Below are positions 10,913 through 64,000 of a stretch of 64,000 nucleotides of DNA, one piece after another. A program made the position numbers and the translations under genes. The first letter of the stretch is position 1, and each line of letters begins with the position of its first letter. The notes under the pieces were generated by a model. That model was not told the origin of the DNA. It saw nothing but the letters and a program-made list of their open reading frames with translations, and ran no database searches. The stretch is taken from the IMG/VR virus record IMGVR_UViG_3300045988_120248, positions 45,063 to 109,062 of that record; one strand, given 5' to 3'. This DNA comes from a virus.

Positions 10913-11011
10913 GCAATGAAACACTGGGGATAGGGTAGCTCCTGAAAAGCGGTTCCCTTACCGCCTTCCCCTGTTTTTCAATAAGGGAATTACTGAAGGG
11001 AGTAATTGAAC

Positions 11012-20990: not shown

Positions 20991-22523
20991 ATGAGTAGAA
21001 GTGTTCTTACAAACCTTGACCTCAATAAAAATGAAATTCAGAATGCGGTGCTTCAGCCGCTGGCTGCGGCTCCTGCGAACCCGAAGCAATTCCAAATCTA
21101 TACGAATTCTCAGGATAAGATCATTTATCAGTATGACGGTGAGAACTGGAACCCGGTAGGTGTTGTTTACAATCAGGCTGGCAGTACCGGCGCGGTCATT
21201 GTCGGCCTTGGTTCAAACGGCACTGTTACTACCAAGAAGATCGTTGAGCTCACGCTGAATGATTATCAGCCGGTCGAAGGCGGCTATATTGCAGATGGCG
21301 ATACGCTTCAGAAAGCATTTGCGGCGCTTGATACCGCTGTTAAGAACGCTGTAGCTGGCGGCGGTGAAGTCAACCAGAACGCGTTTTCTAATGTGACCGT
21401 TCCGACGCAGAGCACGAACGATACCGCCGAAGTTGCTGGGCAGAATGAAGCCGTGACGGTTTCTGCAACCAGCAAGACCGATACGTTCTCTCTTGCCTCC
21501 GGTGATAAGTGGATTCATGTCAACGGTGACGGCACGACCAAAATTATCACACTCGGCCATGTGTTCAGCGGAGCAACTGCCGGTCAGTATGGTGACGCAA
21601 CGCACACTGTTTCCATCACTGTTGACAAGGCCGGCCATATCACGGCGGCAGAAGTCGTTGAAATCGTTGGCGCACAGTACATTTCCGGCCTTACATCCGA
21701 TGCACAGGCACAGCTTAATGCCAAGATTCCCGCATCTGAGAAAGGCCAGCCGAACGGCGTCGCAACCCTCGGCGCAGATGGACTTGTTCCATCTGGGCAG
21801 CTCCCCAGCTATGTGGACGATGTTGTTGAGGCATACATCGTCGGTAGCACGCCTAGAGCAGCTGACTGGCTTTCCACCACAGAAGGCGGTGCTCCTCTGA
21901 CACCGGAAACCGGCAAGATCTACATCGTCATGACGGAAGGCAGCTACCAGAACAAGCAGTACCGCTGGGGCGGCACAGTCTATGTTCTCTGTAACCCTTC
22001 GGACGTCAATTCTGTCAACGGCAAAACCGGTGTTGTTGTGCTGACGCAGGATGATATCGGCGAGGGAGAAACCTATACGCAATTCAGCAAGACCAATAAG
22101 ACAAAACTTGATTCTGTTGCTGAAGGTGCAACTAAGAATACCATCACGCAGAACGGAACAGAGGTTGCGAACCCAACATTCTACGCCCCCACGACCGGAG
22201 GCGAGACTGGGCAGGTTCTGACTTCCAACGGCGAAGGTCAGGCTCCTACATGGCAGGCTGCTCCGGAAAATCTGCACAAGTATTCCATCACGAACCCGGT
22301 GCTTTCCGCTTCCGGCGGTGCATTCACATGGCAGATCGCTGCGCAGGCGAACGGCCCCCAGACCCCGATGCTGGTACAGGTGTATGATACGGCTACAAAC
22401 GCAATGGTTTTGACTGACGTAGAAATCGGTGCTGACAACAGCATTACAATCACCATTAACCAGACCGACGCAAGCGTGACTTCTCTGAGCGCTGGAGCGT
22501 ATCGTGCTGTCGCAATCGGCTGA
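20991..22523 (+). CDS. tail-fibre-like protein (510 aa)
   Basis: Motifs LGADGLVPSGQLPSYVDDVVE and SVNGKTGVVVLT, common in phage fibres. Confidence 0.55.
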   Translation: MSRSVLTNLDLNKNEIQNAVLQPLAAAPANPKQFQIYTNSQDKIIYQYDGENWNPVGVVYNQAGSTGAVIVGLGSNGTVTTKKIVELTLNDYQPVEGGYIADGDTLQKAFAALDTAVKNAVAGGGEVNQNAFSNVTVPTQSTNDTAEVAGQNEAVTVSATSKTDTFSLASGDKWIHVNGDGTTKIITLGHVFSGATAGQYGDATHTVSITVDKAGHITAAEVVEIVGAQYISGLTSDAQAQLNAKIPASEKGQPNGVATLGADGLVPSGQLPSYVDDVVEAYIVGSTPRAADWLSTTEGGAPLTPETGKIYIVMTEGSYQNKQYRWGGTVYVLCNPSDVNSVNGKTGVVVLTQDDIGEGETYTQFSKTNKTKLDSVAEGATKNTITQNGTEVANPTFYAPTTGGETGQVLTSNGEGQAPTWQAAPENLHKYSITNPVLSASGGAFTWQIAAQANGPQTPMLVQVYDTATNAMVLTDVEIGADNSITITINQTDASVTSLSAGAYRAVAIG

Positions 22524-38301: not shown

Positions 38302-39657
38302 AACCCCTGCCTTTAGGCATGGGGATATAAGGCGCTCCAGCTGATGTCAAAAACAATGCGTTCGACCGGGGGAAGCATTGGAAATATGACATAATGTAGC
38401 ATGAAAGGCGGTGATTTCATGGAATATAGCTATAAGTTTCGCATCTACCCTACAAAGGAACAGACATTGCAGATTCAGCGTACCTTTGGATGCTGCCGTT
38501 TCATCTACAACCACTATCTTGCGGCACGCATTGAGTCCTATGAGGCGAACCGAACGACGTTCGGCTATAACGCCTGTTCCGCTGATATGACGGTTTTGAA
38601 AAAGTCACTTCCATGGCTCACCGAAGTAGACTCCACTGCGCTTCAATCCTCGCTGAAAGACTTGGATACCGCCTATCAGAACTTCTTTCGTCGAGTGAAA
38701 TCTGGCGAAAAGCCGGGATTCCCACGATTCAAAAGCAAACGTGACCACCGCAAAAGCTACAAGAGCAAAGCCGTGGGCGCGAACATCAAGGTCTTGGACG
38801 GCGCGGTTCAACTTCCGAAACTCGGCAAAGTCAAGTGCCGCATCAGCCGAAAGGTTGAGGGAAGAATCCTCTCCGCGACGGTATCGCAAAACCCAAGCGG
38901 CAAATATTTCGTATCACTCTGCTGCACTGACGTTGAAATCGAGCCATTGCCGAAGACCGGTGCTGTGATTGGCGTTGATATGGGACTGAAAGCGTTCGCA
39001 ATCACGTCCGAAGGGACGGAATACCAGAACCCGCGCTATTTAGCCAAGAACCAGAAGAAACTTGCCAGACTGCAACGGCAGCTCTCCCGAAAATCAAAGG
39101 GGAGCAACCGGCGCGAAAAAGCGAGGATTCAGGTGGCACGGCTGCATGAGCATATCGCAAACCAGCGCAGCGACATGATGCACAAACTGTCAACGCAGCT
39201 CATCCGCGAGAACGATGCGATCTGCATCGAGGACTTAGCACCGCAGAACATGGTCAAGAACCATCACCTTGCGAAGTCCATCAGCGACGCATCTTGGGGT
39301 GAGTTTCGACGGCAGTTAGAATACAAAGCTACGTGGTATGGGAAGAAAGTAATACCAATAGACCGGTTCTTCCCATCCAGTCAGCTATGCTCCTGCTGCG
39401 GGTATCGGAATACCGACACGAAGAATCTGGCGGTGCGGGATTGGACGTGTCCTGAATGTGGGACGCACCATGACCGGGACATCAACGCAGCAAAAAATAT
39501 TCTAAGCGAGGGATTGCGACTACTGGCCTAGCCCAAACATACGGTAGGGCGGGACACGTCCGAACCTATACGCTCGGGGAGACTGTGTAAGACGCCGCTA
39601 CGGCGCGACGGTCGTAGAAGCGAGAATCCCCCGGCTTTAGCCGTGGGGATTGTCAAT
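38302..39657 (+). mobile_element. IS200/IS605-family element carrying tnpB only (no tnpA)
   Basis: Subterminal hairpins of the same design at both ends: LE cccc-tgcc-ttta-ggca-t-gggg (38304-38325), RE cccc-cggc-ttta-gccg-t-gggg (39628-39649). RE ends GTCAAT as in the other copies. The left boundary is approximate. Confidence 0.75.
38419..39531 (+). CDS. tnpB: TnpB RNA-guided endonuclease (IS1341/OrfB type)
   Basis: [13 protein letters not shown]-terminus, RuvC motifs GVDMGLK / IEDL / [12 protein letters not shown] and CSCCG...CPECG zinc finger. Start trimmed to ATG 38419. Confidence 0.85.
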
Positions 39658-39677
39658 GAGAAAGGTGGGAGAATAGG
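39500..39677 (+). ncRNA. TnpB omega (right-end) RNA scaffold plus flank-derived guide
   Basis: About 125-nt block after the tnpB stop, conserved in all three copies and ending at the RE hairpin and GTCAAT (39657). The guide would be the adjacent 39658-39677. The 5' limit is a guess. Confidence 0.55.
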
Positions 39678-44977: not shown

Positions 44978-45157
44978 TCAGTTTGCGCAGTCTTCCTCCG
45001 AAAGCAAGACGGTATAGAATCGGTCTTCTGGAAGCTTTAACACCGCTGCGTCCACGCTTTCTGCCTCGACAGTAATGAACTCAGCACCTTTTTCCCAGTA
45101 CATCACATGGAATGTATAGCGCTTGTTGATTACGTTCGTGCGGAGTTTTCCGTCCAT
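44978..45157 (-). CDS. hypothetical small protein
   Basis: ORF 44978..45178 trimmed to ATG 45157 after GGAAGGAG. Confidence 0.45.
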   Translation of the reverse strand: MDGKLRTNVINKRYTFHVMYWEKGAEFITVEAESVDAAVLKLPEDRFYTVLLSEEDCAN

Positions 45158-45591: not shown

Positions 45592-46095
45592 TTAAAATAT
45601 ATTTCGCGGACGTGCTTTTTCTATGTCCAACAAATGATCTGTAGCTTCCGCAACCCAAAGCACATCTTCTGATTCCAGAATCCTATTTAGTGCATCATGC
45701 GCCGCTGATTTCTTGAGGGAAATAAATATGTTATCATCTTCGGTTTCAGTTGAAATCCTTGCTAGATTCTCAGCGGCTTTCCCTGAAATGCCAAGTGTAG
45801 CAGCTGCAACTTGAATGTTTTGCTCAACGCTTTCAATGTTTGTTACACCTAGCAGCCAGTCCGTAGATACGCTGAAGTATTCTGCGATTTTTGCGATATT
45901 CTCCCAACTGGGCTGTCCAGAACCGTCACAGTATGCAGATACAGACTGCCTTGCCTTCAGACCGAGATAATCCGCTAATTCTTGCTGAGATACAGTTCTG
46001 TTGATTTTCCCTGCGTCCCCACGCATGAGTCTACGAAGACGGTTGGGGAATGGCTTGTAATAGTTGTCTGTGTAATTGAGTTTTTTGCGCGGCAT
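45592..46095 (-). CDS. XRE-family helix-turn-helix protein
   Basis: HTH_3-like segment VSQQELADYLGLKARQSVSAYCDGSGQPSWENIAKIAEYFSVSTDWLLG. Confidence 0.7.
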   Translation of the reverse strand: MPRKKLNYTDNYYKPFPNRLRRLMRGDAGKINRTVSQQELADYLGLKARQSVSAYCDGSGQPSWENIAKIAEYFSVSTDWLLGVTNIESVEQNIQVAAATLGISGKAAENLARISTETEDDNIFISLKKSAAHDALNRILESEDVLWVAEATDHLLDIEKARPRNIF

Positions 46096-46096
46096 A

Positions 46097-47185
46097 TTAT
46101 ATACCCCTCATTTCCCGCACATTCTGTGCCACGATTTTTACTGCGTCATCAATGATTTTGATATCTCGTTCGAGGTTCAGCCCGTAGTTATTGCCCATAT
46201 CATTTGCATTCGGGTCGAGTTTGTAATCGAAGCTGAACCGGATGGCCGACCGGGCGCGTTCCTCAGAATACCCCGAAGCGAGAAGCACACGGGATGGCGC
46301 GTTATCACCGCTGGAACACGCTGCGCCGGATGAAACCATCAGACCGTCAGCCGAAAGCCGCAGGACGAGCGCATGGTTCTCAATTCCGGGGAAAGAAATG
46401 TTTGCGATATATGGAGACTGTCCAAACTGATGGCCAAAGCATTCCAAACCGTTTAGCTGCGCATCTGGTAGTTCATTCATAATACCATCGATCAAGTGGT
46501 TATGCAACACCCTCGTTGTTTCTGCGAACCAGTCCAGATGATTTGTGCGGAATTCCAATGCGACAACAAACGCAGCGGCAAGCGGAGCGGATGGCGTTGC
46601 AAAATGGAAGTTCTCTGTGACTTCATCCGGATTTCGTGCAATTAACACACCGATTCCAATCGGAGCACCGAATTTATGACCCGCGCCGCATATGAAATCT
46701 ATTCCGCTTTCACGGAAATTGATTTCCTGTTTCCCCATGGCTGCGGTGCAGTCGGAGAATGTCAAGTCATACCCCGCAAAAGCGCTTTTCAAATCATAAA
46801 TTTCACCGGTTTCGTTGTTTGTGTGGATATGAGATATACCGCGCAGTTTGTTTCCAATACGGCTTATTGGCATCATGCGGTCTGTAATGCTTGTCACTGC
46901 TGCGTGCTCCGCACTGCTCGCAGAAATACCCTTGCATTTGTCATTCATAATCGTGAGCGCAATCCTGCACGCTTCCGTTGCGGACGAAACGAAGAAAACT
47001 TGGTCCGGCTCACAGCCCAAGCACAGCGCTACGCCCTTGCGGGATGCTTCAAATGCCTTTCTGGTAGCTTGCCCAAAGGAATGTATAGAATTCGGGTTCC
47101 CCCATACCGGCACCTGCGCCCCTACGAATGTTCCCATCGCGCCCTTAAGCGGGGGAGAAGTAGCCGCGTAATCCAAGTAAATCAT
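46097..47185 (-). CDS. class V aminotransferase / NifS-IscS-like cysteine desulfurase
   Basis: YLDYAATSP, GNPNSIHSFG, PLP-lysine motif GAGHKFGAPIGIGVL, active-site loop SSGAACSSG. Confidence 0.8.
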   Translation of the reverse strand: MIYLDYAATSPPLKGAMGTFVGAQVPVWGNPNSIHSFGQATRKAFEASRKGVALCLGCEPDQVFFVSSATEACRIALTIMNDKCKGISASSAEHAAVTSITDRMMPISRIGNKLRGISHIHTNNETGEIYDLKSAFAGYDLTFSDCTAAMGKQEINFRESGIDFICGAGHKFGAPIGIGVLIARNPDEVTENFHFATPSAPLAAAFVVALEFRTNHLDWFAETTRVLHNHLIDGIMNELPDAQLNGLECFGHQFGQSPYIANISFPGIENHALVLRLSADGLMVSSGAACSSGDNAPSRVLLASGYSEERARSAIRFSFDYKLDPNANDMGNNYGLNLERDIKIIDDAVKIVAQNVREMRGI

Positions 47186-47727
47186 GCGCCCAACTCAACC
47201 TCCTTCGGCCAACGCGGCAACGCAGCGGCACAGATTTTTTCGTAAATTTCTTTCTGTGCAAGCAGCGTATCGCGTTCCTTCTGAATCACACGATATGCGT
47301 CTTCTAATCCGAATGGCTCGTTGAGTGGAACACGGATCTTTTCTGACTCTGACGCTTGAGAGGCAGTTACAATGCCAGTAGGGGGGGCGTTAAGCCCCAA
47401 GGAGACGATAACCGCTTGGTCAACAAGTTTCATTTCATCGGATGTCAACGTGCAATAGTAGTTCTCCAGACGATCCTTATCGACCGTGTAGATTGCTTCG
47501 CAAAGCGCGGTCGACTGCTTGCCCATCGTATCAATGGAAACGTGCGTGGGCATTGGCTTTTTCTCGGCAGTCGTGAGATAAACAATCTCTACAGTGCCGG
47601 AATATGTATTGTTTTTTTCATTACTGACAATAATCGCGGGGCGATTCTTTTTTTGCTCGGAACCGACAGCAGCATAGTCCTGACGAACCCAGAAAATGTC
47701 GCCCCGATGGATTCTTATATCCTGCAT
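47182..47727 (-). CDS. PemK/MazF-fold toxin-like protein with about 65-aa C-terminal extension
   Basis: RGDIFWV...GSEQKKNRPAIIVSN...VEIVYLTT N-terminal domain; stop overlaps the next ATG (ATGA). Confidence 0.6.
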   Translation of the reverse strand: MQDIRIHRGDIFWVRQDYAAVGSEQKKNRPAIIVSNEKNNTYSGTVEIVYLTTAEKKPMPTHVSIDTMGKQSTALCEAIYTVDKDRLENYYCTLTSDEMKLVDQAVIVSLGLNAPPTGIVTASQASESEKIRVPLNEPFGLEDAYRVIQKERDTLLAQKEIYEKICAAALPRWPKEVELGA

Positions 47728-47784: not shown

Positions 47785-48060
47785 TTACTTTGCAACTGCG
47801 TTTTTCAGAATGCTGCTCGGCGAGAATTTGACCGAAAAACGGGCTGGAACCTTGATGTTTTCACCGGTCTTCGGGTTCCGCGCATCTCTGGCCTTCTGGT
47901 ACTTCGCAGCAAACTTGCCGAAGCCAGCGATAGAGACATCTTCATGCGAAATGAGGGATTCTCCAATCGCTTCAAACACGGCATCGATGGCTTCCTGGCT
48001 GGCGGTCTTCGGCATATTAGTCTTGCTGGCAACTGCCTGAACGAGTTCTTCTTTGTTCAT
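47785..48060 (-). CDS. hup: HU-type DNA-binding protein
   Basis: MNKEELV...GFGKF...RNPKTGE.I.VPA.....F typical HU/IHF signature, 91 aa. Confidence 0.85.
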   Translation of the reverse strand: MNKEELVQAVASKTNMPKTASQEAIDAVFEAIGESLISHEDVSIAGFGKFAAKYQKARDARNPKTGENIKVPARFSVKFSPSSILKNAVAK

Positions 48061-48087: not shown

Positions 48088-48163
48088 TGGTGGGCCGTCT
48101 CGGAGTCGAACCGAGATTTTACCAGTTATGAGCTGGTCGCTCTAGCCTTTGAGATAACGGCCC
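48088..48163 (-). tRNA. tRNA-Met or Ile2 (anticodon CAT), CCA encoded
   Basis: Acceptor GGGCCGT/ACGGCCC, anticodon arm ACCAG-CTCATAA-CTGGT, T arm CTCGG-TTCGACT-CCGAG. Lacks initiator features; one weak D-stem pair. Confidence 0.85.
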
Positions 48164-48947
48164 ATCTATAACCGGCTTGACGTACCGGCCGTGAGGTCTT
48201 GCGCGCAGACCAACGGCAAATTCAGGCGGTTGCACACCGGCGCTTGTGTGTCAACAGTCCTTAAAGCGTCCCCAAAGGTGCTGCCTAGTTTGGCGGATTT
48301 CAGTTCGCCCAAAGCGTTACGAAATTGTGCGGATTCATCCGGTTCGACCACTAGTGAGTCTTTCCCGGCAAGCTGAACGGAACTTTCCAAAATGGACTTG
48401 TGCCGTCTCTACGAAGGTCTATATCCGCTTGACCTTTACCTTTTCGGACCGAAACGCGCAAACGGCTTTTACTGCGCTGTCGGCACAAGTGTTACCTTGC
48501 CCCGGTGGGTTTTCACCACTATATTCTGTTAGTTTCGGTAGCCCACGCATCAAGCGTAGGGGATATGATGGCTGTTCATCAAACTCCATTTAACTCAGTC
48601 AAGCACCAACCTCCAACTTATTGGCCAATGCTTATCTGCTGCACCATCATTTTTTGAGCGATTAGGTACAAGCAATCGCTCGAACTTGGCTTCTTGGGTT
48701 CTCCCCGTCGTTGGACGGGCGGATTTGCCATCTCCGGAAAGGCTTCCGCATTGCCATTGCAGCGTAGCCATTATCCCGCTTTCGACCCATATAGCTGCAT
48801 TTTGCCTCGTTCTCCTTGGACGCTGTGGGTCAGCGTCTTTAGCCGGTGGCGCTACGCTCCACGATCACGCTATTGCGTGCGTGAATGGATAGCTGTATGA
48901 TTCCCACCATGTTAATTTGTCGCGCGGAGAACCCCAACGGGCGGCTA
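48164..48947 (-). ncRNA. candidate large structured noncoding RNA between two tRNAs
   Basis: 784 nt with no credible ORF on either strand; many local helices; abuts tRNA-Met and tRNA-Gln without spacer. Family untested. Confidence 0.4.
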
Positions 48948-49024
48948 TGGCAGGGGTAGCAGGATTTGAACCTACGAATATGGGAGTCAAAGTCCCATGC
49001 CTTAGACCGCTTGGCGATACCCCT
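48948..49024 (-). tRNA. tRNA-Gln (anticodon TTG), CCA encoded
   Basis: AGGGGTA/TACCCCT acceptor, TGGGA-CTTTGAC-TCCCA anticodon arm, GTAGG-TTCAAAT-CCTGC T arm; resembles bacterial tRNA-Gln. Confidence 0.9.
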
Positions 49025-49178
49025 TTGTTGCCGGCCTTTCCCGGCTGTCAGAGTGCTTACATTCCCGAAGAACTCGTCCGTGGTATCGGCTATATCAACC
49101 CGACGACACCGCTGCCAGATGCGGAGGTTTCATTCCAACTACGGTTTAACGAGTAACAACCTCGTATGTTGGTGGGCA

Positions 49179-49208
49179 TGGTGGATGCGGCGAGGATTTG
49201 AACCCCGC
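49179..49208 (-). pseudogene. tRNA-like 3' module (T arm + acceptor 3' strand + ACCA) without an adjacent 5' half
   Basis: GCGGGG-TTCAAAT-CCTCGC then CGCATCC-A-CCA; no complementary 5' strand within 90 nt. A matching GGATGTG lies at 50587-50593 beyond the tnpB element. Confidence 0.45.
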
Positions 49209-49246
49209 ACGGTGCAGGCAGTATGCGACGAGCTTTGTTCCCGTCC

Positions 49247-49420
49247 GAGGTGGCTGCTTCAACCCCATTGACACTTCCCGTGGAAAAACAGGGGATTCTC
49301 GGTTCAGCGACCGTTGCGCCGTAGTTGCGTCTTACATGGTCTCCACGAGCGTATAGGTTCGGGCGTGTCCCGCCCTACCGTATGTTTAGGCTAGGCCAGT
49401 AGGCGCATTCCTTCGTGCAA
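49247..49420 (-). ncRNA. TnpB omega RNA scaffold plus guide, copy 2
   Basis: Same conserved block after the tnpB stop, ending GTCAAT at 49267; the RE hairpin is partly degenerate; guide would be 49247-49266. Confidence 0.5.
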
Positions 49421-50601
49421 AATGTTCTTCGCGGCATTTACATCCCGGTCATGGTGTGTCCCACATTCAGGGCACGTCCATTCCCGTACCGCCAGATTCC
49501 TTGTTCCGGTATTCCGATACCCGCAGCAGGAACATAGCTGGCTGGACGGGAAGAACCGGTCTATCGCTATGACTTTCTTTCCATACCACGCGGCCTTGTA
49601 CTCTAACTGCCGTCTGAACTCGCCCCATGCTGCGTCACTGATGGACTTCGCAAGGTGATGGTTCTTGACCATGTTCCTCGGTGCTAAGTCTTCGATACAG
49701 ATCACATCATTTTCCCGGATGAGCTGCGTTGACAGCTTGTGCATTATGTCCCCACGCTGGTTTGCGATATGCTCATTCAGCCGTGCCACCTGAATCCTTG
49801 CTTTTTCGCGCCGGTTGCTCCCCTTTGATTTTCGGGAGAGCTGCCGTTGCAATCGGGCAAGTTTCTTCTGGTTCTTGGCTAGATAACGTGGATTTGGATA
49901 TTCTATTCCATCGGACGTGATTGCAAACGCTTTCAATCCCATATCAACGCCGATCACAGCGCCGGTCTTCGGCAGCGGCTCAATCTCCACGTCGGTACAG
50001 CAGAGCGATACGAAGTATTTTCCACTAGGATTTTTGGATATCGTGGCAGACAGAATTCGGCCTTTGACTTCTTTTGAAACCCGACATTTGACACGCCCCA
50101 GTTTCGGAAGCTGGACGGCATCTTCAAAAACTTTTATACCGCCTTTTGATTTATAACTCTGTCTATGCTCACGTTTGCTCTTAAATCGCGGAAATCCGGG
50201 TGGCATTCCATTCTTGACGCGGCGAAAAAAATTCTGATATGCGTCATCCAAATCCTTCAGCGATGATTGGAGCGCTGTAGAATCGGCCACTCGAAGCCAC
50301 GGAAGAAACTTTTTTAGTTGCGTCATATCCGCGGAACATTCACAATAGTTCATCATCTTGGAATCTTGTTCATATGCGTTTTGCCTCATTCTGAGATAGT
50401 AATTCCAAATGAACCGACAGCATCCGAATATCTGTTGAATCAGACAGGTTTGGGAATACGAAGGATATATTCGGAATTTATAACTGTACTCCATTATCTC
50501 TCCTTGCATATTTTTTATGATTTCCATGGAAACGTGTGTCACGCTTTCCTGCACCGCATACCCTTGCTGCCTTTTCCATTCGGCCACACATCCGTATGTT
50601 T
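49267..50601 (-). mobile_element. tnpB-only IS200/IS605-type element, copy 2 (rearranged left end)
   Basis: The RE matches copies 1 and 3. The region upstream of tnpB is unrelated to copy 1 LE but has its own bulged hairpin (50528-50549). The left boundary is uncertain. Confidence 0.55.
49391..50494 (-). CDS. tnpB: TnpB RNA-guided endonuclease, copy 2
   Basis: Starts [12 protein letters not shown] after AAGGAGAG. The C-terminal about 200 aa are nearly identical to copy 1 and the N-terminal part is diverged. RuvC and zinc-finger motifs intact. Confidence 0.85.
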
Positions 50602-52762: not shown

Positions 52763-52836
52763 TGGAGTGCGTGAGGAGAATCGAACTCCCACCATCAGAT
52801 TGGAGGTCTGATGTTCTGCCGTTAAACTACACGCAC
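52763..52836 (-). tRNA. tRNA-Gly(TCC)-like with C at position 33
   Basis: Good cloverleaf (GTGCGTG/CACGCAC, D stem GTTT/GAAC, T arm GGGAG-TTCGATT-CTCCT, U73, CCA). The anticodon loop is CCTCCAA instead of CTTCCAA. Confidence 0.7.
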
Positions 52837-53183: not shown

Positions 53184-54272
53184 TTACGCTATCTCCGGCT
53201 GTGGAACCTGCTTCAACCGGAGGCTTCCGAAAAAATTGTCTCCCGATGCCTCCAACCGGTCGATATTTCTACGCGCCTGACGCTCCTTTTCTTCTTGCAC
53301 GACTTTGGTCATTCGTCTGTTCTTGCGGCTTGTCAGTTTGCCGGAATAGATCTGCGTGGTTGAAACTGATTCATGTCCGAGTTTTGCTTGCAATTCTTCA
53401 TACTTCATACCGCTGTTCAGGTCAAGCCGTGCGCCGACGTGCCGCAGATCGTGAGTACGAATCATGTCGACCCCGGTAACTACTTTCACATGCCGACGAA
53501 CGACGTCTGACAGCCATTGCCGTGTCCCTGCGTGCCATTCTTCTCCCTTGTTGTCACCCTTGAATTTGAACGTCGCTTCTGTCCCAAAAAGTGGGTCACT
53601 GTTACCGGCAGCTGCGGGGCGAATGCCACTGTTTAGATACATGCGAACAGCTGTCTGCGCCAGAATAGGGAAGTCCACTGGACGGAATTTGTCTCCCTTG
53701 CCATGTTCAACGGTCAACTCCGAATTTTCCCAGTCAAGATCGTTCGGCGTAAGCGCCAGGAGCTCGCTGTTCCTGATTTCTGTAGTCAGGAGCAAAATCA
53801 CGATGGAGTAGTTTCTCGGCCAAAATTCAGGGCGCTTGAGATTTGCCGGCGGATTATTTCTCCAGAGCAGTAGGACTTGTTCGTCGGTCAGCAGCTGGTC
53901 GTATGGGCGTTTCTCAAGTTTTCTTGTGTCTGGAATCAGAAGCGGCGCAACCGGATTACTCTCGTACCATCGGCTCTCGCCGAGCTGTTCGGATGATGCG
54001 AATTTGTATAACAGAGAAAGAGCCTTCAAGTATTGCTTAATTGTGTTTGGCTTTTTTCCGTCCCTCCGCAGCTGGTCTCTCCAAGCCTGAATATCGATAA
54101 AACTTTCTTCTCGCCCGTCCCATCTCTTATTGTCCAGCATGAATCCGGAGAAAAGCCGGAATATCTGCTCCGCGTTCTTGACCGTTATCTCAGAACGACC
54201 GATAGCTCGAAGGTTTTCTTCATATGCCACCATCGCAGACTGGAATTTTTCACAGGCATTTGGAAAACCCAT
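53184..54272 (-). CDS. int: tyrosine recombinase / phage integrase
   Basis: C-terminal catalytic signature TEIRNSEL ... HDLRH ... LGHESVSTTQIY. Confidence 0.85.
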   Translation of the reverse strand: MGFPNACEKFQSAMVAYEENLRAIGRSEITVKNAEQIFRLFSGFMLDNKRWDGREESFIDIQAWRDQLRRDGKKPNTIKQYLKALSLLYKFASSEQLGESRWYESNPVAPLLIPDTRKLEKRPYDQLLTDEQVLLLWRNNPPANLKRPEFWPRNYSIVILLLTTEIRNSELLALTPNDLDWENSELTVEHGKGDKFRPVDFPILAQTAVRMYLNSGIRPAAAGNSDPLFGTEATFKFKGDNKGEEWHAGTRQWLSDVVRRHVKVVTGVDMIRTHDLRHVGARLDLNSGMKYEELQAKLGHESVSTTQIYSGKLTSRKNRRMTKVVQEEKERQARRNIDRLEASGDNFFGSLRLKQVPQPEIA

Positions 54273-63366: not shown

Positions 63367-63545
63367 TTTCGTGACCTCGCGGAAATGTTGACACTCCCCA
63401 CGTCTAAAGCCGGGGGATTCTCGGTTCAGCGACCGTTGCGCCGTAGTGGCGTCTTACATAGTCTCCACGAGCGTATAGGTTCGGGCGTGTCCCGCCCTAC
63501 CGTATGTTTTGGCTAGGCCAGTAGTCGCAAGCCCTCACTTAGAAG
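63367..63545 (-). ncRNA. TnpB omega RNA scaffold plus guide, copy 3
   Basis: Conserved block after the tnpB stop ending GTCAAC at 63387; guide would be 63367-63386. Confidence 0.55.
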
Positions 63546-64000
63546 GTTTTTCGCGGCGTTGATGTCCCGATCATGGTGTGTCCCGCATTCAGGGCACGTC
63601 CACTCCCGTACCGCCAGATTCCTTGTTCCGGTATTCCGATACCCGCAACAGGAACATAGCTGACTGGATGGGAAGAACCGGTCAATCTGTATGACTTTCT
63701 TCCCGTACCACGCGGCCTTGTACTCCAGCTGCCGCCTGAACTCGCCCCACGAGGCGTCGCTGATAGACTTCGCAAGGCGATGGTTCTTGACCATGTTCTT
63801 CGGTGCTAAGTCTTCGATGCAAATCACATCATTTTCTCGAATGAGCTGCGTTGACAGTTTGTGCATCATGTCGCTGCGCTGGTTTGTGATATTCTCATGC
63901 AGCCGCGCAACCTGAACCCTCGCTTTCTCACGCCGGTTGCTCCCCTTTGATTTTCGGGAGAGCTGCCGTTGCAGTCTGGCAAGTTTCTTCTGGTTCTTGG
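63387..64000 (-). mobile_element. tnpB-only IS200/IS605-type element, copy 3 (runs off the window)
   Basis: RE hairpin tcccc-cggc-ttta-gacg-t-gggga nearly identical to copy 1. Confidence 0.7.
63513..64000 (-). CDS. tnpB: TnpB, C-terminal part (5' end outside the window)
   Basis: The frame stays open to the window edge (...[51 protein letters not shown]...); near-identical to copies 1 and 2. Confidence 0.85.

Follow-up and report, generated by a model that had tools for sequence, protein, structure and literature searches.

What occupies the 784 nt that separate the genes for tRNA-Gln(TTG) and tRNA-Met(CAT) in the genome of a phage? We analysed a 64,000-nt stretch of phage DNA (IMG/VR record IMGVR_UViG_3300045988_120248, positions 45,063 to 109,062; the window throughout), whose preliminary description, made from the letters of the sequence, had read this gap as a large structured non-coding RNA, either one of the GOLLD or ROOL RNAs or a member of a new class, that RNase P and RNase Z would release as one discrete molecule of 0.8 kb. 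Its central reading stood up to comparison with related phages, and we hold with high confidence that a real non-coding RNA region, structured and under selection, lies here; the single discrete molecule is now no more than a candidate, as the interval is a chain of modules, with related modules also upstream of tRNA-Gln. The interval is free of coding potential, conserved and modular, holds covarying helices and a pseudoknot, and falls outside the GOLLD and ROOL families. We lean towards reading it as one large modular RNA of a new class, which would be freed from the transcript of a tRNA operon, act in trans and probably associate with itself; we infer its transcription, processing, action in trans and self-association.

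The limits of the interval are as they had been described. ARAGORN and Rfam both find the two tRNA genes, which abut a gap of exactly 784 nt, the HU gene starts 27 nt past tRNA-Met, and the longest open reading frame (ORF) of the gene strand in the gap has 74 codons (TTG start, 48166-48390). Each frame of the RNA strand is interrupted by 8-16 stop codons, and no open frame was found when TAG, TGA or both were taken as recoded; with TAA as the sole stop the longest open stretch covers 138 of 260 codons. Of the 303 insertion and deletion events seen among 30 distinct homologs, 255 are not multiples of three, clean blocks of 68 nt and 103 nt among them. A protein-coding gene under an alternative genetic code, which the preliminary description had named as one outcome that would speak against an RNA, was therefore rejected; the closed frames and out-of-frame events show an interval without coding potential.

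Relatives of the region were not within reach of a simple search, as BLASTN against 50,697 phage records returned matches to the tRNAs only. We collected them by a synteny scan with the downstream class-V aminotransferase gene and by a scan with a conserved 23-nt pattern, which gave homologs on 30 contigs of IMG/VR and about 30 from human-gut metagenomes; one more subgroup, a divergent one, came from a synteny scan with profiles and from a looser pattern with two gaps. A search of one representative genome for each species yielded 3 chance matches and no host prophage. The region upstream of tRNA-Met occurs in 51 distinct versions, in which the modules were tabulated. This tRNA lies directly downstream of the RNA region in 51 of the 51, and tRNA-Gln is present in 38, which have the layout tRNA-Gln, RNA, tRNA-Met, HU, with an RNA of 359-981 nt. 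One variant that shares the exact HU protein of the window (L003) has part of the interval replaced and lacks the neighbouring insertion sequence.

The best-conserved part of the RNA is a compact, pseudoknotted core (Table 1), which occurs in 48 of the 51 versions. Across 28 distinct sequences 99.6% of 840 cells are standard-paired, and changes on both sides are seen in 10 of 30 pairs. When the 3′ partners were slid by 1-3 columns, pairing fell to 22-53% with at most 2 compensatory pairs, and shuffles never reached the values of the core. P1 and the pseudoknot stay 100% paired with the divergent subgroup added, and one pseudoknot pair takes three Watson-Crick types (G-C, U-A and A-U) when the divergent members are included. 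The fixed helices of the core hold about 97 G.U cells, as against at most 3 non-standard cells. The register of the P2a helix varies between subgroups, and P2a was not used as evidence. A calibrated covariance model of the core, R1, scores 144 bits in the window and 65-113 bits in the divergent subgroups. Metagenome loci L049, L050, L052 and L076 were set aside as chance: they have no flanking tRNA, and L049 and L076 reach only about 13 bits with the core model. Elsewhere in the window the core model weakly matched 21185-21295 (plus strand; rough E 0.002, 19 bits), a stretch within a tail-fibre-like ORF, and this match was also rejected as chance.

Compensatory changes extend to the other modules. 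D1 has 35 consensus pairs, 7 of them with compensatory change (RNAalifold, 26 versions); its hairpin at 48851-48893 occurs in two entirely different, equally paired versions, double changes turn GCUAU/GUAGC into CCUGC/GCAGG, and the hairpin at 48819-48837 goes from GACGCUG/CAGCGUC to GACUCUG/CAGAGUC in relatives. This last helix was one of three quoted in the preliminary description, all of which lie where it had placed them; the other two (48704-48719 and 48735-48748) fall in a 103-nt insertion that is confined to the lineage of the window and L079, which leaves its hairpins without comparative support. D2 and D3 together (48446-48652) form 53 pairs, 98.1% canonical and 7 compensatory. Within D3, CAAG/CUUG becomes CGAG/CUCG in relatives, and the 68-nt sub-module is cleanly absent from L006/L008-type versions. 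D5 forms 50 pairs, 97% canonical with 2 compensatory (Alifold), and in 19 divergent versions pairing over its final 60 nt reaches 95.7%, with 5 compensatory pairs. The 3′ piece of this module, D5b, was detected by nhmmer with the D5b of the window in 45 of 51 versions, the three core-less ones all among them; the same search did not detect it in six subgroup-2/L064 versions. The covarying helices that the preliminary description had proposed to look for among homologous loci thus exist in both the core and the modules, pseudoknot included.

How the modules are put together differs between lineages. L098 consists of D1 and D5 only (359 nt) and L106 of D1, D2 and D5; L115 lacks the core; D3 stands before D2, and the core after both, in L014; and L010/L011 consist of the core preceded by Ub, a module that in the window lies upstream of tRNA-Gln. 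Order is fixed in 36 of the 38 versions of the tRNA-Gln type. Comparison thus shows the interval to be a chain of independently folding units, not one interlocked fold. Ub is itself structured, with 30 pairs, 98.3% canonical and 5 compensatory (Alifold, 12 versions), and the RNA locus may extend upstream of tRNA-Gln, with this tRNA embedded in it. An all-against-all helix scan that allowed G.U pairs was too noisy for defining long-range pairs. Pairing of D2 (RNA 360-365) with the P2a loop of the core (RNA 555-560) was considered and dropped, since only one-sided changes were seen.

Does this RNA belong to a family already described? We searched with Rfam 15 (4,227 models). Inside the interval of the window there was no match at E<=10, to GOLLD, ROOL or any other family, and only the flanking tRNAs were reported; the interval of six relatives likewise had no match to any family at E<=5 (L003, L010, L013 and L014) or E<=1 (L107 and L064). 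The same search mode did find divergent GOLLD RNAs of Caulobacter and Brevundimonas phages (119 and 104 bits; two loci from the alignment of Kretsch et al., PMC12286853) and ROOL on L. salivarius pMP118 (130 bits). In the reverse direction, R1 with filters off scored at most 4.3 bits on these GOLLD and ROOL control loci, and the nhmmer profile of the family had no match to GOLLD env-38, to ROOL env-120 or to the stretches of L083/L084 that hold GOLLD. The RNA therefore lies outside the GOLLD (RF02032) and ROOL (RF03087) families, within what covariance models can tell, and of the two identities put forward in the preliminary description it is the new class that holds. Neither a tRNA nor a tRNA-like or tmRNA element (Rfam clan CL00001, ARAGORN) was found inside 48164-48947, tRNA-like pieces occurring only upstream, at 49179-49267. 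A ToxI-like (type III) antitoxin or a CRISPR-like array was rejected because there are no tandem or direct repeats, and the omega RNA of TnpB because the nearby insertion sequence ends at 49268 and the RNA persists in relatives that lack this element (L003, L005 and others).

The RNA is nevertheless a new class within a known kind, the large phage RNAs of tRNA islands. GOLLD and ROOL are found near such islands, and GOLLD is one RNA in which the 5′ region varies and the 3′ region is conserved (PMC12286853). Like GOLLD, the RNA described here is a phage non-coding RNA of about 0.8 kb in a tRNA island, with tRNAs in or beside the locus and with pseudoknots; GOLLD env-38 adjoins tRNA-Met, as this RNA does, and the conserved 3′ and variable 5′ parts recur in both, a resemblance and not a proof of homology. 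It differs from GOLLD in showing no sequence or covariance-model similarity in either direction, in having about 118 nt plus about 80 nt of conserved sequence where GOLLD has a 3′ domain of 416 positions, and in having modules that can be reordered and a core that is absent in 3 of the 51 versions. ROOL, too, is a large structured RNA of gut and rumen Firmicute phages and prophages, often near tRNAs. It has no model or sequence match to our RNA, and its 5′ part and 3′ part intertwine in one fold, whereas the domains here are local, and each can be lost or moved without the others. In the tRNA arrays of phages and mycobacteria, too, tRNAs, tRNA-like pieces and structured spacers are clustered on one strand; the modules here, in contrast, are not tRNA-shaped and receive no tRNA call from ARAGORN or Rfam.

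Two hairpin loops of the RNA are self-complementary. The D5 hairpin keeps its position, and its stem occurs in four covarying forms (GGUCU/AGACC, GGUUU/AAACC, GGCCA/UGGCC and GGAGC/GCUCC). Its 7-nt loop reads GCGCGC in most versions, GUGCAC in eight and, in the member that diverges most, GUGCGC, which brings in G.U pairs, and it has a CCGG core in subgroup 2; scored as self-pairs, the loop columns are 96.5% complementary, the adjacent central bases being GC in 17 and CG in 2. The apex of P3a is CACUAGUG, CCGCGCGCGG or ACGCGU, depending on which of three subgroups is considered, with covariation at the two adjacent bases of its centre (UA in 13, GC in 7). Adjacent bases cannot pair inside one hairpin, so the pattern is most simply read as two copies of the RNA pairing with each other. 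The dimerisation initiation site (DIS) of HIV-1 pairs two RNA copies through a loop with a self-complementary hexamer, GCGCGC or GUGCAC, followed by A. The same hexamers followed by A stand in the loop of the phage hairpin; the DIS loop has 9 nt as against 7 nt here, host molecule and biology are unrelated, and dimerisation of the phage RNA is putative. GOLLD and ROOL form homo-oligomers held partly by self-interacting kissing loops (PMC12286853); such loops are seen in the GOLLD structure, and for the RNA described here both the kissing and the oligomer are predictions. With few independent events behind it, self-association through the two loops is a tentative proposal that we would sooner doubt than believe.

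The setting of the interval suggests how such an RNA could be made. The minus strand carries every gene from the integrase (53184-54272) through a helix-turn-helix (HTH) gene (45592-46095), and a consensus scan found no minus-strand promoter or terminator inside the interval, which makes co-transcription plausible; the interval is probably co-transcribed with the flanking tRNAs and the downstream HU, MazF-like and cysteine-desulfurase-like genes. RNase Z is inhibited by CCA, as is the case for the B. subtilis enzyme. Both tRNAs encode CCA, so RNase Z is unlikely to make the 5′ end of the RNA, and of the release proposed in the preliminary description it is the cut by RNase P at the 5′ end of tRNA-Met that remains plausible; this cut would give the RNA its 3′ end. 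The scheme that we favour has a large structured RNA, read from the same strand as the tRNAs in a clade of human-gut phages, that would probably be freed from its precursor by tRNA processing. D1, D2, D3, the core and D5 fold independently, like beads on a string, with lineages gaining, losing and reordering modules, and the core and the 3′ piece of D5 are the most constant parts. The RNA may then act in trans as an RNA-only or RNA-centred particle, its copies pairing by loop-loop kissing, in a functional niche that it would share with GOLLD and ROOL in phage tRNA islands.

Table 1. Features of the RNA locus and its surroundings (window coordinates; RNA numbering runs from the tRNA-Gln side).
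Feature	Position	Strand	Details
tRNA-like element Ua, 5′ half	50534-50597	-	cut off from 3′ half by TnpB insertion sequence
tRNA-like element Ua, 3′ half	49179-49267	-	T arm, acceptor strand, CCA; by comparison with intact L003 1384-1540
Module Ub	49080-49183	-	structured; upstream of tRNA-Gln; directly 5′ of core in several other subgroups
tRNA-Gln(TTG)	48948-49024	-	ARAGORN; Rfam tRNA 62 bits; CCA encoded; 5′ boundary of RNA interval
Whole non-coding interval	48164-48947	-	784 nt; order D1, insertion, D2, D3, core, D5
D1	48756-48947	-	RNA 1-192; multi-branch; helices 16-22/133-139, 7-12/168-173
103-nt insertion	48653-48755	-	hairpins 48735-48748, 48704-48719, 48656-48681; lineage-specific
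D2	48541-48652	-	RNA 296-407; closing helix AUGAUGGU/GCCAUCAU; variable apical hairpin; hairpin 48542-48560
D3	48446-48540	-	RNA 408-502; helix CCGAAAC/GUUUCGG around optional 68-nt two-hairpin sub-module (48461-48528)
Conserved pseudoknotted core	48326-48443	-	118 nt; common to all subgroups; best-conserved part
P1 hairpin (core)	48431-48436/48414-48419	-	AAGGUC/GACCUU
Pseudoknot (core)	48423-48428 with 48329-48334	-	P1 loop GCGGAU with AUCCGC about 90 nt downstream
P2 helix (core)	48403-48412/48372-48380	-	GUAGAGACGG/CCGUUCAGC; variable inner hairpin as cap
P3 helix	in core	-	CCGG/CCGG; capped by P3a hairpin
P3a hairpin (core)	48346-48360	-	self-complementary apex CACUAGUG
D5	48164-48325	-	RNA 623-784; region of variable hairpins, followed by the 3′ piece that is kept most widely (D5b)
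D5 hairpin	48196-48210	-	GUCU-GCGCGCA-AGAC; self-complementary loop
Terminal hairpin	48172-48188	-	CCGGU-ACGUCAA-GCCGG; 8 nt before tRNA-Met; all subgroups; 97.9% paired
tRNA-Met(CAT)	48088-48163	-	ARAGORN and Rfam; CCA encoded; 3′ boundary of RNA interval

The surroundings of the locus are themselves unusual. Intact Ua, as found in L003 (1384-1540), is about 157 nt long, with acceptor strands GGAUGCG/CGCAUCC, a type-II-like D arm, a T arm and CCA, and has about 70 nt in place of the anticodon arm; it receives no ARAGORN call and only a weak match to an Rfam tRNA-like model (mascRNA-menRNA). The same relative holds a 69-nt tRNA-like element (1621-1689) with acceptor, T arm and CCA and no anticodon arm, and sub-threshold tRNA-Sec matches (40-42 bits) occur at L003 1076-1158 and L013 3824-3906. 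The window holds an IS605-type TnpB element in three copies, with mutual identities of 80-89% (49268-50533, minus strand; 38575-39658 and 63388-64000, plus strand). The copy adjoining the RNA locus (tnpB at 49391-50494) is missing from relatives such as L003 and L005, and the 469-amino-acid ORF listed at this place is a 367-amino-acid gene extended in frame on its upstream side. Further upstream lies a third phage tRNA, tRNA-Gly(TCC) (52763-52836, minus strand); in relatives the stretch from tRNA-Gly to tRNA-Met measures from about 1.0 to more than 3 kb and holds different tRNAs (Pro, Asn, Asp and Ser).

Downstream, the HU gene (Bac_DNA_binding, 47785-48060), preceded by a strong AAGGAGG ribosome-binding site (RBS), is followed on the same strand by a gene for a MazF/PemK-like toxin (47182-47727; 181 amino acids, longer than usual), with no recognisable antitoxin gene adjoining, and by an overlapping class-V aminotransferase or cysteine-desulfurase-like gene (46097-47185). 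One may speculate that the product of the latter has a role in thiolation of the phage tRNA-Gln(UUG). As a whole the window is a phage genome that encodes portal, tail, endolysin, integrase and anti-repressor proteins, and no close cultured relative of it was found. The nearest relatives of its endolysin are from human-faecal, Monoglobales and Blautia phages, which together with the Shine-Dalgarno site indicates a gut Clostridia host, and the phage clade probably infects Clostridia. Just past the portal gene lies a match to the Rfam int-alpA RNA (10923-10987, plus strand; 52 bits, above the gathering score).

Several observations weigh against one large RNA with one function. Folding of the single sequence is only modestly better than chance (z = -2.4 for the tRNA strand and -1.0 for the other, 20 shuffles each), so that the structural case rests on comparison with relatives, and there the consensus folding energies of the two strands are similar (-296 and -275 over the full RNA, nearly the same values in the core). 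The tRNA-sense strand is nevertheless favoured as the one that folds, because several near-invariant G.U pairs of the core would be A.C mismatches on the opposite strand, and the G.U pairs in the core helices fit this. All members come from one phage clade, with 82-90% identity in the main group, so the compensatory changes represent few independent events. As to the loops, the P3a palindrome is broken in 4 of 46 versions, and self-complementary centres are common once G.U is allowed, with 18 in 689 columns, 2 of them with compensatory change. Finally, no covarying helix joining two modules was found and three versions have no core; such losses, taken with the lack of inter-module helices, make 'one RNA, one function' no more than a candidate reading. 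The main rival starts from here: the interval would be an array of several independent small structured RNAs, each processed out and acting alone, with no single RNA of 0.8 kb. That the modules fold locally and have been lost, reordered and recombined (L098, L106, L014 and L010/L011) speaks for such an array, as do the odd tRNA-like genes in the neighbourhood. However, neither tRNA-like ends nor known processing signals were found between the modules by ARAGORN and Rfam, the order hardly varies among versions of the tRNA-Gln type (fixed in 36 of 38), and GOLLD has the same pattern of a variable 5′ and a conserved 3′ part yet is one RNA. We regard the array as less likely than the single RNA, and as the alternative to be taken most seriously.

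Other explanations fare less well. If the interval were a cis-acting leader or spacer that governs transcription, processing or stability of the operon of tRNA-Met, HU and the MazF-like gene, for example as a riboswitch-like sensor or a scaffold for RNase P, it would be understandable that D5b and the terminal hairpin always stand directly before tRNA-Met, even without the core, and that the core is aptamer-like in size and complexity; yet no expression platform that resembles a terminator or sequesters an RBS is present, the core stands 165-240 nt of variable sequence away from tRNA-Met, the 600-1000 nt of structured modules far exceed known leaders, and no riboswitch or T-box model matches, which makes a cis role unlikely. 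It is very unlikely that the RNA is a GOLLD or ROOL so divergent that current models miss it: the context in a phage tRNA island beside tRNA-Met, the size and the GOLLD-like 3′/5′ pattern are shared, whereas Rfam gave no match in a search that detects divergent GOLLD (104-119 bits) and ROOL (130 bits), and neither R1 (at most 4.3 bits in the control loci) nor nhmmer (env-38 and env-120) connects the families. Hardly any weight can be given to a type III-like RNA antitoxin for the MazF/PemK-like toxin encoded two genes downstream. The toxin gene does lack a recognisable adjoining protein antitoxin and the order RNA, HU, MazF is conserved, but the repeats that define ToxI-type antitoxins are absent, and a tRNA and the HU gene separate the RNA from the toxin gene. 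An equally slight chance remains for a non-functional region, made of decayed tRNA or gene remnants, or for a DNA element such as a recombination hot spot or a set of palindromic protein-binding sites. The region is a recombinogenic mosaic close to an insertion sequence, its palindromes might in principle act as sites in DNA, and the two strands have similar consensus folding energies; against this, many helices and the pseudoknot are preserved by compensatory changes, frequent, conserved G.U pairs stand where the other strand would have A.C mismatches, and the palindromes change in sequence yet stay self-complementary, unlike a specific protein-binding site.

One large modular RNA thus remains the reading that we favour. 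Few large, elaborate RNAs of bacteria and phages are known, and the function of GOLLD and ROOL is still open despite their solved cage structures. If a third class, unrelated in sequence, occupies the same site, a phage tRNA operon beside tRNA-Met, then the niche itself would select such RNAs. The known distribution of the family is narrow; it may be of interest to RNA structural biologists, to whom it offers a compact 118-nt core for structure work, natural variants in which modules are lost or swapped, and two candidate self-pairing loops ready for mutagenesis. It is also a case of domain shuffling at the level of RNA, in a recombination-prone island of tRNAs and RNAs. A bolder picture, which we think doubtful, is that of self-assembling phage RNAs of a third class, independent in evolution and strung together like beads, in which the DIS-like loops of the core and D5 would link copies into dimers, rings or cages and the peripheral modules would be swapped between phages like protein domains. 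If it is true, the natural variants that each lack a single module would be a ready-made deletion series for the function of the RNAs of tRNA islands.

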